Source: a virus
Lineage: Duplodnaviria > Caudoviricetes
Direction: 5' to 3' (one strand)
Length of the DNA: 64,000 nucleotides
IMG/VR virus record: IMGVR_UViG_3300044627_003892
Every line of letters begins with the position of its first letter. The first letter of the stretch is position 1. Both the position numbers and the translations under genes were made by a program. A model generated the notes under the pieces. The model was given only the letters and a program-made list of their open reading frames with translations, was not told the origin of the DNA and did not search any database. Shown here piece by piece: positions 11,890 to 60,482 of the stretch.

Positions 11890-14370
11890 TTAAGGTTTAA
11901 ATGTTTGTTTTCCATCATCCCAAACATATGTAACTTGAGTTCCGTCAGGTTTTGTAATAATACCTGTACCCTCCTCTGTATTATATTCACCAACTTTATA
12001 ACCTTTATCAATAGTAAATTCACTATCTAACGCAAATTTTGCCCATCCAAGGTCGTCGTCACTGTATTTTCCTTTTAGACTTCTTTCACCTTGTCTTTGT
12101 TTTCTTTTATTTTTTAAACATTCAAACATATTAGCTGCAGGGTCCTTACCATTATCACTATTATAACAGTATTCAGTTCTTAATACATTATCATACTTAT
12201 CTTTTGTATTAATAATTTCTTGTTCTAAGTTTTCAATAAAATTTTGTCGAATAGCCTCACTACCCCCACCAAACAATCCCTCATTATATATTCTTTTTAA
12301 ATATACTTGAAGTTCATCTATATAAGTACCTGTTATAACTCCACCCATTTCTAAAATTCCTTCAATCGGAGTTGGTCGAAATGAATCCCTTATTTGTTCA
12401 TCACTTAAAGGTGTTTTAACTTCTGAGATTACTTTACTTAATTCCGCACATTCTTCATCAGTTCCAATTTTTTCATATGTAACACCTTCATTAACAATTG
12501 GTTCACATAATAATTTTTGAATTTTTTCAAATTCTATAACCATTTGTATCTTTGCATCATTCCTTCTTGTACCCTCAATAAAACTCATAACCCATGGAAA
12601 AACAGTCAATTTCCAAAAAAGTAATTTAACTCCCCTATCAAACCAAACTCCCTTAGTTCCCGCTAAACCTATAATACTTCTGTAGGTTTGAATACTGCTA
12701 GGGTCCATTGTTAAAGCAAATCTTGTCCAACTTTTACCCAAATCGGCAAAAAGTAAAGCGGCATTTAGTGCCTTAGCTTCAGCACCTTCAGCTTTTATTA
12801 TGTCCCTCCATCTTTTTACATTTAAAATTAGTGACATTTCCCCGTAACCTCGAAACATTTGTGAGACTAATTTATCGAAGTTTTCTTGGAAATCGTTACC
12901 TAAATTTTCATATAATTCTTTAAACTCTTTACTTTCTAAGAATTTATTAAGTCTGGCATCGTCAATACCCGAATTTTTAAGTTCAGTTTCAAGCCAGTCT
13001 TTAGCACCTTTTTTACCTAAATCACTTTCTTGTAAGAGTACTACTAAATTTTTAATTGTATCTAAATTACCACCTATACCTTTATGATTAAGAATATTTT
13101 TTGCCATAATTTGTAGTTCCTTATTCAACAGGTTTTCAATGTCCTGAAGTGAACGTATTCTAAATGTCTTTAACATTCTATTTCCAAAATTCTCAATAAA
13201 ATATTTCACATACGCCGTACCTCTTGCACTACCAATTATTTTTAACTTAGGTAAAAGTACTTCATATAATATTTTCTTAACTTTTTGAGCGACAGTTTTA
13301 TCAGGGTAAACCTCAACCTGACTTGCCAATCTTATTATACTAGAAATTGATGTAAATTCTTTATTTAATCTATCACCTAATATTTTTAAATCAATCTCAG
13401 AAACTTCTTCGTCAAGTATTTCTCTCCAAGTTCGGTTTTTTGAGGTTTGTGACATAATTTCTCTCGAATATTTACCTAAATCAGGTAGTCCCTTTGTATT
13501 TATAGAACCTACTTTACTTAAGAAATTATCTAAATATTCTTTCATAAATTCTTCATTTCTTTTAAGAACTGGTAGTATTTTATTAAATAAAGATTCAGAT
13601 AAGTCTTCTATATTATTTATTCTTCCAGAGACATAGTTTTTTAACTCTTCAAATTCTGATGATGTTACAGTAATTCCACCAGTATCAATATTTGTAGAGC
13701 CTCTCTTTGTGTCATACTTTGTTAAAAATAGTTCACTAATTTTTTCTTTTAAAATATTTTTATTTAATATAATATTCTTAGCAGTATCAGCGTTTAATGG
13801 TAACTCATTTAATTTATATGCGTCAATTAATAACTTTTTATACTCTTTATCAATATTTAATTCTTCAAGTCTTTTTTTAAGACTTCTTAATTGAGTTAAA
13901 ACATCATTATATAAATCATCGTCTTGAGTAGCAATGGTTGGTGTCAATTTTTTCAAAATCGATTCAGACTTAGTCGCCAATTCATCAAGCTCAGGGTAAA
14001 TCTCTTTTAAACTTTGTCTTATTGACGCTTTCATTTCTTGTTTTACCTGAGCATTAGAAGTTTTAAGTAACTCTTTAAACAATGTACTAAAAGGAATATC
14101 ATCTAAAACACTGTTACTCCAATCAGCAGCTCTAATTGCTGTTAATATATCTTGAAGTGTACGAGTTGTTACCTCACCACCAACCTTTGAAATACTTCGA
14201 GTAACTACATCACTTAGTGTTCTTGGGTCTATATTTTTTATAGCATCCACATCAAATAATCTTTTTAACAATTTTTGAGTTAAACTTGATGGTAAACTGT
14301 CTTCACTAATTATTTGAAGACCCATTATTTCTCTTACTCTGTTAATTTCACTTAAAATTTCTTTTTTCAT
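11890..14370 (-). CDS. Large helical hypothetical protein (possible virion/ejection protein)
   Basis: 826 aa; leader MKKEILSEINRVREIMGL; hydrophobic segment GVKLLFWKLTVFPWVMSF. Confidence 0.7.
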   Translation of the reverse strand: MKKEILSEINRVREIMGLQIISEDSLPSSLTQKLLKRLFDVDAIKNIDPRTLSDVVTRSISKVGGEVTTRTLQDILTAIRAADWSNSVLDDIPFSTLFKELLKTSNAQVKQEMKASIRQSLKEIYPELDELATKSESILKKLTPTIATQDDDLYNDVLTQLRSLKKRLEELNIDKEYKKLLIDAYKLNELPLNADTAKNIILNKNILKEKISELFLTKYDTKRGSTNIDTGGITVTSSEFEELKNYVSGRINNIEDLSESLFNKILPVLKRNEEFMKEYLDNFLSKVGSINTKGLPDLGKYSREIMSQTSKNRTWREILDEEVSEIDLKILGDRLNKEFTSISSIIRLASQVEVYPDKTVAQKVKKILYEVLLPKLKIIGSARGTAYVKYFIENFGNRMLKTFRIRSLQDIENLLNKELQIMAKNILNHKGIGGNLDTIKNLVVLLQESDLGKKGAKDWLETELKNSGIDDARLNKFLESKEFKELYENLGNDFQENFDKLVSQMFRGYGEMSLILNVKRWRDIIKAEGAEAKALNAALLFADLGKSWTRFALTMDPSSIQTYRSIIGLAGTKGVWFDRGVKLLFWKLTVFPWVMSFIEGTRRNDAKIQMVIEFEKIQKLLCEPIVNEGVTYEKIGTDEECAELSKVISEVKTPLSDEQIRDSFRPTPIEGILEMGGVITGTYIDELQVYLKRIYNEGLFGGGSEAIRQNFIENLEQEIINTKDKYDNVLRTEYCYNSDNGKDPAANMFECLKNKRKQRQGERSLKGKYSDDDLGWAKFALDSEFTIDKGYKVGEYNTEEGTGIITKPDGTQVTYVWDDGKQTFKP

Positions 14371-14382
14371 GTTAATAAATAT

Positions 14383-60177: not shown

Positions 60178-60182
60178 AATGT

Positions 60183-60482
60183 TTATTTTCTTTTCTTTTT
60201 AGCTCTTCCATCACAATGGGCTCTCTGACTGAATCCTCTTGGAGCGTTACAGTTAATACTTCTCTTGTATTCATCTGTCCACTTCTCCATGATTTGTTCC
60301 AACTCATCAATATAATCAAACTTCTGTTTGAAGGATGGGTGGTCTTTCATATCATCCCCATGAACATCGTCGTTGTAATCAGTATCAGCCTTCTCATCGT
60401 AAGGTTCTGACACATCTTTAGACTCTCTGATAACTCCCATCATCTGTCTAATTTTTCCAAGTTGTTCTGTTAGTTTTGTCAT
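60183..60482 (-). CDS. Hypothetical protein with MTKLTEQLGKIRQMMG leader
   Basis: C-terminal INCNAPRGFSQRAHC module. Confidence 0.7.
   Translation of the reverse strand: MTKLTEQLGKIRQMMGVIRESKDVSEPYDEKADTDYNDDVHGDDMKDHPSFKQKFDYIDELEQIMEKWTDEYKRSINCNAPRGFSQRAHCDGRAKKKRK

Follow-up and report, generated by a model that had tools for sequence, protein, structure and literature searches.

Interchangeable N-terminal leaders on unrelated proteins of a freshwater jumbo phage: possible T4-like head-loading tags

Why should dozens of otherwise unrelated phage proteins begin with the same few peptides? The question is raised by a 64,000-nucleotide stretch of a Caudoviricetes genome (IMG/VR record IMGVR_UViG_3300044627_003892), here called the window, in which an initial annotation had noted about 40 unrelated proteins sharing a few N-terminal leader peptides, and had read these as capsid-targeting tags that load effectors into the virion. 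The leaders are shown here to be real, conserved as peptides, exchangeable between cargoes (the protein parts that follow them), present throughout the clade and tied to a promoter-like motif of head and tail genes. Their best explanation is a tag resembling that of phage T4, which would load proteins into the head and then be trimmed off. This reading is given a probability of roughly 45%; late expression of the tagged proteins, their docking, cleavage, packaging and delivery are the parts of it that we infer.

The window was compared with two relatives. G002 is a 240,759 bp contig of ~92% nucleotide identity (window 95-56,400 against G002 1-57,109, in reverse orientation, the alignment being interrupted by block replacements), and G003, more distant, is complete at 321,403 bp with direct terminal repeats. 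Profile searches restricted to N-termini, with six leader types termed A to F, detect 37 leader genes in the window (A 6, B 14, C 9, D 2, E 4 and F 2; Table 1), 38 in G002 and 30 in G003. Without their first 25 residues, the 37 window proteins sort into 33 BLASTP cargo groups, the sole group with several members being formed by five B-type paralogues; apart from these five, the proposal of numerous unrelated proteins with few shared starts is borne out. Among 107 crude gene calls, 104 of the 5,671 pairs reach a BLOSUM62 score of at least 25 over residues 2-16, against 4 pairs over residues 31-45 and 0 for shuffled N-termini.

All the genes named in the initial annotation exist and start as it described, with the proviso that its coordinates are the low ends of the genes, minus-strand leaders sitting at the high end (e.g., 27949, 37281, and 38869). 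Its families A and B, treated as separate, are related and intergrade, bridged by the hybrid MKKFIITESQLEYIVKRHINE at 25520(-), and the gene at 41231, assigned there to family E, fits family C better. Its list lacked 14383-17370, which has an E-type leader by profile search, as well as three genes that are leader-like by eye (21272-21871, 27984-29033, and 33745-34200).

The leaders are conserved as peptides. Their invariant residues use two to four synonymous codons (AGT/TCN for Ser, AGA/CGT/CGA for Arg, and CTA/TTA for Leu) and are kept through these changes, which places the conservation at the peptide level and led us to reject a purely DNA-level conservation. Best reciprocal pairs of window and G003 proteins show 69% identity in the leader and 27% in the remainder. 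In relatives with only ~70% identity in the ClpC-like protein, leader A remains 70-100% identical. The alignment of 24 homologues of the 36904-37281 protein has 14 invariant columns among its first 22, and overall identity to the first sequence goes down to 32%.

Three cases illustrate how leaders and cargoes part company. The cargo of 47308-47763 stands behind a C leader in the window, and its G003 homologue behind a B-like leader. That of 21272-21871 follows a C-like leader and a 68-residue extension; its G003 homologue starts directly with an A leader. Finally, 39655-39966 carries a B leader, and a paralogue in G002 (13944-14216) lacks just those 10 residues and lies behind a host-type promoter (TTTG-N19-TAtaTTTG). 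Leaders are shown here to be exchangeable between cargoes, as judged from these homologous genes.

Leader A is widespread in public metagenomes. Searched against their proteins, a 30-column profile of it retrieves 7,994 cluster representatives (50% identity) at E ≤ 0.001, of which 566 reach E ≤ 1e-10; the match nearly always begins at residue 1, and the proteins inspected individually have unrelated bodies. Many top matches hold a second, internal copy, and 43 internal copies were counted among 232 proteins. In these, the helix core TESDLxRIVKRVIxE is conserved and the first six residues have decayed. Leader A is therefore not strictly an N-terminal signal. In the window, G002, and G003, leaders are nearly always N-terminal, the two exceptions being the tandem arrangements of 33745-34200 and of G003 220933-221625, where a D-type leader is followed by an A-like helix. 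Metagenome proteins P0101, P0103, P0105, P0106, P0110, and P0128 resemble two fused leader-cargo cassettes; some two-cassette proteins retain the Met-Lys-Lys of the second cassette, and some show I/L-x-E-N-K just ahead of it. A tblastn search of 50,697 phage records (INPHARED) with 25 residues of leader A gave no match, and neither did a search with the 995-aa protein of 14383-17370.

The head module of this clade is of the T4 type. It was seen in G002, where it adjoins the region aligned to the window: from the window's left edge, G002 continues into the large terminase (60,092-61,837) and portal (63,192-65,027) genes, then bS21, a PF03420/phrog_207 protease of gp21 type (66,499-67,218), an acidic scaffold-like protein, and a gp23-like capsid protein (68,978-70,867). 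PF03420, the T4 protease family, matches in four of five large related contigs (E = 1.7e-27 to 9.9e-24). The 38 leader genes of G002 are confined to two stretches, one at 2.5-45 kb and the other immediately after the capsid gene (71.9-73.7 kb); those adjoining the capsid gene are conserved in G003. In the 166 kb that hold the tail, baseplate, and fibre genes (G002 74-240 kb), profile searches found no leader gene. The capsid protein itself, 629 residues long, matches T4 gp23 only at residues 72-105 and from ~300 onward, and hence has a ~190-residue insertion after its propeptide region.

T4 gp21 cleaves after L/I-X-E, and foreign proteins enter T4 heads when given no more than the N-terminal 10 residues of IPIII (PMC9026906, PMC3012670). 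Every leader type contains candidate sites of this kind: B has ITE7, C has LQE5 and LRE13, A has LTE9 and VIxE22, D has L(I/L)SE28, and E and F have hydrophobic-x-E-Q. The long leaders A, D, E, and F end with hydrophobic-x-E, usually followed by Gln, and Q directly follows Glu22 in 177 of 224 metagenome copies of leader A. Among A, D, E, and F proteins, 42-70% have hydrophobic-x-E-Q within the first 50 residues; the figure is 6% for other proteins, where the rest of the proteome predicts 2.8%. The earlier claim that similarity stops at an (L/I/V)xE motif is accurate for A, C, D, E, and F, and fails for B, where similarity continues three residues past Glu7. Boundaries of the same kind are found in the head proteins. 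G002 and G003 have almost the same capsid-protein propeptide as far as LINE, after which come Ala and variable sequence. A second head-module protein varies in its propeptide (16 and 42 residues), which in both cases ends with (I/L)NE, ahead of a conserved APIxYEGPERM. As for internal leader A copies, [LIVM]xE stands just before 14 of the 43, against 7.1 ± 2.4 expected, a count that ignores kinship among the proteins.

Most leader genes form one-gene cassettes, in which a G+C-rich hairpin comes first and TATTTAT follows, 11-15 or 19-25 nt upstream of the ATG; each hairpin that Table 1 lists within 27245-40736 (-) is followed by TATTTAT and then by the next leader gene. TATTTAT occurs at most 45 nt upstream in 65 of 105 leader genes, and its extended consensus, RTATTTATnnnnAAA, recurs unchanged ahead of terminase, portal, protease, scaffold, and tail genes. 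Upstream of leader genes, the Bacteroidota host-type motif TAnnTTTG was seen in 2 of 68 cases; its frequency is 3-5% for head/tail-side genes and 20-24% for genes elsewhere. Since TATTTAT is shared and TAnnTTTG depleted, leader genes belong to the same promoter class as virion genes, and their late expression is suggested by these motifs. Two promoter-like classes split the genome in this way, TATTTAT standing before head, tail, and leader genes; TAnnTTTG stands before the ClpC-like gene, signal-peptide genes, repeat-protein genes, and the 160-199 kb region of G003. Sigma-70-type promoters are not enriched (82 found, 93 ± 10.5 expected).

Structural models fit the idea of a detachable leader for type A. 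In the AlphaFold2 model of the 36904-37281 protein, built with its 24 homologues, residues 1-8 form a coil and residues 9-22 a helix that ends at Glu22, with a predicted local distance difference test (pLDDT) score of ~58; a break at residues 23-26 precedes a folded cargo domain with pLDDT 80-92. Because this helix is highly conserved yet poorly packed, the model suggests a partner outside the protein itself. In the model of a B paralogue (47796-48125), residues 1-6 are a flexible tail and residues 7-20 a helix that is part of the fold. A complex prediction for the scaffold-like protein with residues 1-40 of a leader A protein scored 0.00, giving no verdict either way.

The two modelled cargoes are small α/β domains, and most others are shorter than 270 residues. 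Fold searches with both models returned only virus-only hypothetical clusters; in the PDB, no match exceeded Z 4.2 or reached E ≤ 0.001. Scanning the leader-bearing proteins with Pfam and PHROG yielded almost no family, the sole matches being PPK2 and Hydrolase_2 on 25535-27196 and CarboxypepD_reg, an Ig-like domain, on 27984-29033. As almost all cargoes have no recognisable family, the label "effectors" given to them earlier is unsupported. The 25535-27196 protein (553 aa) is an unusual fusion, in which an E-type leader precedes a polyphosphate kinase 2 and a SleB-type cell-wall hydrolase. One metagenome protein has a PG_binding_1 domain behind leader A, and PG_binding_1-like features were assigned at 0.88 to the 995-aa protein by an atlas feature search, a weak lead only.

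Put together, the favoured reading would run as follows. Tagged proteins would be made late, along with the head proteins; the leader, either as an extended MKYLITE-type tail or as the amphipathic helix TESDLxRIVKRVIxE, would dock them onto the scaffolding core of the assembling prohead; the gp21-type head protease would cleave after the Glu of (L/I/V)xE at the leader end; and the released cargo would remain in the head, probably to be delivered with the DNA. The capsid-targeting proposal of the initial annotation is thus consistent with the protease, the end motif, the promoter-like motif, the leader exchange, and the models, its two further elements, presence in virions and cleavage, keeping the standing of predictions.

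Several observations weigh against this reading. A load of 30-40 packaged proteins would exceed that of T4, which has three internal proteins and Alt, an objection softened by the ~50 proteins held in phiKZ-like heads (PMC7411985). The (L/I)xE tripeptide is common in a proteome rich in K, E, I, and L, and the leaders have no evident likeness to the T4 targeting peptide, a Met-Lys start and a Glu end being all that the eye can match. The well-conserved internal helix that leader A forms in many proteins indicates that the element can do without a free N-terminus. For family B, the model makes the helix beyond Glu7 part of the fold, so that a cut after Glu7 would remove the tail alone. Some cargoes have hydrophobic segments or Pro/Thr linkers, which would also suit surface or membrane proteins. 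TATTTAT is a motif only, its late timing being deduced. Lastly, Flavobacterium phage immuto, the nearest cultured relative, whose capsid protein is 42% identical to that of the clade, has none of leaders A, B, and C, though it possesses the protease.

The leader might instead be an uncleaved docking or oligomerisation helix, plugging diverse small domains onto a common platform or onto each other, whether at the capsid exterior, the neck, a fibre, or in an intracellular assembly. Strong conservation of leader A, an amphipathic helix, even at internal positions, where the core outlasts the first six residues, is what such a function would leave behind, and low pLDDT in the most conserved part of the protein suggests an external partner here as well. 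Some cargoes are Ig-like or follow Pro/Thr/Ser linkers, and a promoter-like motif common with virion genes fits any virion-associated role. Yet the tail, baseplate, and fibre part of G002 is free of leader genes, most cargoes are small globular ORFans and not fibre-like, and the invariant Glu-Gln at the exact end of conservation, together with the propeptide boundaries of head proteins, is better explained as a cut site. On balance, an uncleaved helix appears rather unlikely.

Less probable still is a tag recognised by another phage factor, such as a ClpC-type unfoldase, an FKBP chaperone, or a modifying enzyme. The leader-bearing clade encodes a ClpC-like double AAA+ protein and a transfer-messenger RNA (tmRNA) beside the head module, and immuto has neither the ClpC-like protein nor the leaders, a correlation that comes from one outgroup genome. 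Pfam detects no Clp_N substrate domain in the ClpC-like protein (window 2299-4362, +), and ClpP genes are absent from G002 and G003, from which it follows that the protein may act as a stand-alone unfoldase or with the host ClpP. No maturase-like enzyme was found in Pfam and PHROG scans of ~50 window proteins, a part of the genes. Recognition by such a factor also leaves unexplained both the (L/I/V)xE ends and the clustering by head genes, and we consider it a poor candidate.

Could the shared starts be a mere by-product of cassette evolution, in which a boundary of promoter, first codons, and terminator is mobile, paralogy adds to the effect, and the peptide has no sorting role? The layout invites the thought: leader genes are monocistronic hairpin-TATTTAT-gene cassettes, 25 terminator-like sites lie in 27-42 kb against 5.4 ± 2.5 in shuffled sequences, the block replacements between window and G002 fall exactly in the leader-gene region, and the five B genes are plain paralogues. 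Three divergent pairs, each of a C-leader gene (-) and a B-leader gene (+), also share a near-identical intergenic region of 32-33 bp centred on the palindrome ATAAATATAATTATATTTAT, owing to which both strands read TATTTAT 11-13 nt before the ATG; this regular pairing may mean that the C and B products work together. Cassette recombination clearly spreads the tags, but it cannot explain selection on the peptide. Invariant residues survive synonymous codon switches, even six-fold-degenerate ones; leader A is far better kept than the ClpC-like protein, and recurs across the 7,994 clusters; and internal copies are conserved without any promoter. Such purifying selection calls for a function of the leader itself, and a by-product is very unlikely.

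That the first codons act in the mRNA, as an initiation signal for late transcripts with a short or no 5′ leader that are read by ribosomes carrying the phage bS21, is highly improbable: the 11-15 nt between TATTTAT and many start codons do imply very short 5′ untranslated regions, and the clade encodes in its head module a bS21, a protein proposed to favour late phage transcripts (Chen et al. 2022, PMC9723584), yet conservation spans 22 codons at the amino-acid level with synonymous change free, structural genes with the same promoter-like motif have other first codons, and internal copies are conserved far from any start codon. Export was rejected as well. The leaders are charged and amphipathic, with no hydrophobic core, unlike Sec or lipoprotein signals, and true signal-peptide-like N-termini cluster separately. 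The latter, of signal-peptide or lipoprotein type, form a gene set of their own (window 17678-18163, 31650-32255, and 43766-43954) with many homologues in G002 and G003, and the phage therefore also makes exported proteins.

The head-loading reading can be extended to a multi-class address code. At least six interchangeable leader classes would then sort 30-40 late proteins per genome, and thousands of families in lake phages as a whole, each to its own site or stage in the building of the head. In that scheme, copies in tandem or at internal positions would be polyprotein-style units of docking and cutting, and the head would deliver a large, fast-shuffled arsenal of proteins into Bacteroidota along with the DNA. 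We hold this wider proposal to be doubtful. If the head-loading reading itself is true, the T4 capsid-targeting device, used there for about four proteins, would become a general, expandable sorting system in abundant lake phages, and sequence alone would flag dozens of candidate packaged or injected proteins per genome among unreadable ORFans, likely to be counter-defence or take-over factors. The leaders would also provide ready-made peptide tags to load foreign proteins into large phage heads. A role for the 22-residue leader A would annotate ~8,000 unannotated protein clusters, a sizeable part of the viral dark matter.

The leader genes and the elements between them are collected in Table 1.

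Table 1. Leader genes and associated elements of the window (aa, length of the encoded protein).
Feature	Position	Strand	Remarks
Leader A gene	27515-27949	-	MKKVVRLSESELTRLIKTVVKE at high end; 144 aa
Leader A gene, divergent copy	29030-29611	-	MKRINLTENDIFNIVNKVIAEE; 193 aa
Leader A gene	36904-37281	-	125 aa; modelled with AlphaFold2
Leader A gene	38393-38869	-	158 aa; C-terminal segment hydrophobic
Leader A gene	39980-40687	-	235 aa
Leader A gene	40760-41140	-	126 aa
Leader B gene	20388-21011	+	MKYLIKESQK; 207 aa
A/B hybrid leader gene	25203-25520	-	MKKFIITESQLEYIVKRHINE; 105 aa
Leader B gene, weak copy	31240-31587	-	MKYIIDQKQL; 115 aa
Leader B gene	38904-39215	-	103 aa
Leader B gene	39655-39966	-	103 aa; leaderless paralogue in G002 at 13944-14216
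Leader B gene, five-member paralogue group	47796-48125	+	modelled with AlphaFold2
Leader B gene, paralogue group	49961-50314	+	
Leader B gene	50328-50606	+	92 aa; acidic cargo
Leader B gene	50973-51293	+	true start 50973, not the upstream ATG at 50952
Leader B gene, paralogue group	51297-51626	+	
Leader B gene	51635-52045	+	136 aa
Leader B gene	52062-52418	+	118 aa
Leader B gene	53267-53638	+	123 aa
Leader B gene, paralogue group	53635-53973	+	
Leader C-like gene	41231-41602	+	MNLHESIQRIKVLMES; under E in the initial annotation
C-like leader gene	21272-21871	-	MNIKKLIKKVLTES...PLISE; G003 cargo homologue directly behind A-type leader
Leader C gene	47308-47763	-	151 aa; G003 cargo homologue behind B-like leader
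Leader C gene	50610-50939	-	109 aa
Leader C gene	52434-53234	-	266 aa
Five consecutive leader C genes	56018-58487	-	56018-56638, 56640-57068, 57065-57532, 57534-58169, 58179-58487
Leader D gene	35441-36835	-	464 aa; 28-residue leader, end PLISE then Q
Leader D gene	39284-39589	-	101 aa
Leader E gene	11890-14370	-	826 aa; no known family
Leader E-like gene	14383-17370	-	995 aa; leader region ends ILSE then Q, residue 37
Leader E gene	25535-27196	-	PPK2 and SleB-type cell-wall hydrolase cargo
Leader E gene	60183-60482	-	99 aa
Leader F gene	32248-33648	-	466 aa; leader end IILE then Q
Leader F gene	37893-38309	-	138 aa
F-like N-terminus, weak member	18500-18967	-	kept in orthologues as part of the protein
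Tandem-leader gene	33745-34200	-	N-terminal leader end IISE then Q; Ser/Thr linker; internal D-type leader, residues 57-87
Palindromic intergenic region, divergent C/B pair	47764-47795		near-identical copies 50940-50972, 53235-53266
Terminator-like G+C-rich hairpins between leader genes	27245-40736	-	27245-27268, 27473-27498, 30873-30896, 33700-33722, 36861-36883, 38348-38370, 39243-39265, 40715-40736

The window has 30% G+C and small, tightly packed genes, and encodes a tmRNA and a tRNA-Arg besides the ClpC-like protein, with which a search of IMG/VR gave 189 related stretches, the best 80 of the 189 being taken as loci. Leaders are absent from the recognisable cytoplasmic enzymes of this region, namely a sugar epimerase, an FKBP, a DenV-like glycosylase, a family-2 glycosyltransferase, a metallophosphatase, a glutamine synthetase, and a thioesterase, a selectivity that fits the head-loading reading. 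The metallophosphatase and glycosyltransferase genes (48118-49538, -) lie amid the array of B and C leader genes. At the right end (62276-63744, -), the glutamine-synthetase-like and 4HBT thioesterase genes are auxiliary metabolic genes. In both relatives, bS21 is encoded on the reverse strand inside the T4-like head module, between the portal and protease genes (G002 65777-65932, -; G003 299562-299720, -), an arrangement that is the signature of freshwater bS21 jumbo phages of Bacteroidota (Chen et al. 2022, PMC9723584). For this reason the phage is assigned to that group by the gene content of its relatives.

A literature search found only T4 and phiKZ-type precedents, and we know of no published description of these leaders. 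Two other systems offer partial likenesses. The anchor modules of tail fibres and tailspikes are folded domains of 50-150 residues on fibre-like or β-helix proteins encoded in the tail module. They share with the present proteins a conserved N-terminus and a variable C-terminal body swapped by recombination, and differ in that the tags described here have 7-35 residues and sit on small globular ORFans; this class was rejected on the leader-free 74-240 kb of G002 and on the small α/β domains of the modelled cargoes. The cargo-loading peptides of encapsulins are usually C-terminal and uncleaved, and bind the HK97-fold shell protein directly. Here too a short conserved peptide with a flexible linker is found, which in encapsulins directs unrelated enzymes into the HK97-fold shell; the present leaders, in contrast, are N-terminal and involve no encapsulin-type shell or motif.

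Closer precedents come from the heads of large phages. In phiKZ-like giant phages (phiKZ, 201phi2-1, and SPN3US), propeptides of ejection or inner-body proteins are cut at S/A-x-E by an S80 protease (PMC5694885, PMC10052503). Tens of head proteins are processed after Glu in these phages, paralogues may share identical N-terminal residues with the rest diverged (SPN3US gp53 and gp54), and a propeptide may hold several cut sites, resembling the tandem leaders. Most phiKZ-like propeptides, however, exceed 100 residues, and they come from a few paralogue families, in contrast to a small set of tags that can be exchanged among dozens of unrelated cargoes. The PF03420 protease of the T4 family, the hydrophobic residue at P3, and leaders of 7-35 residues on unrelated cargoes led us to reject membership in this class.

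The nearest known system is the capsid-targeting sequence of T4, which the gp21 prohead protease removes from IPI, IPII, IPIII, and Alt (Mullaney and Black 1996; reviewed in PMC9026906, PMC3012670). Packaging and cleavage, known in T4, are predicted for the present proteins. Both consist of a short N-terminal peptide common to otherwise unrelated, fast-evolving accessory proteins, ending with L/I-x-E, in a phage with a T4-type head module and a gp21-family protease (here in G002), and in both the genes concerned lie in a hyperplastic region of small genes. The differences are mostly of scale and form. T4 has one peptide of 10 residues on about four proteins, and the genomes described here have 30-40 tagged genes each and six leader types, four of them helical and 20-35 residues long, leader A being found internally and in tandem as well.

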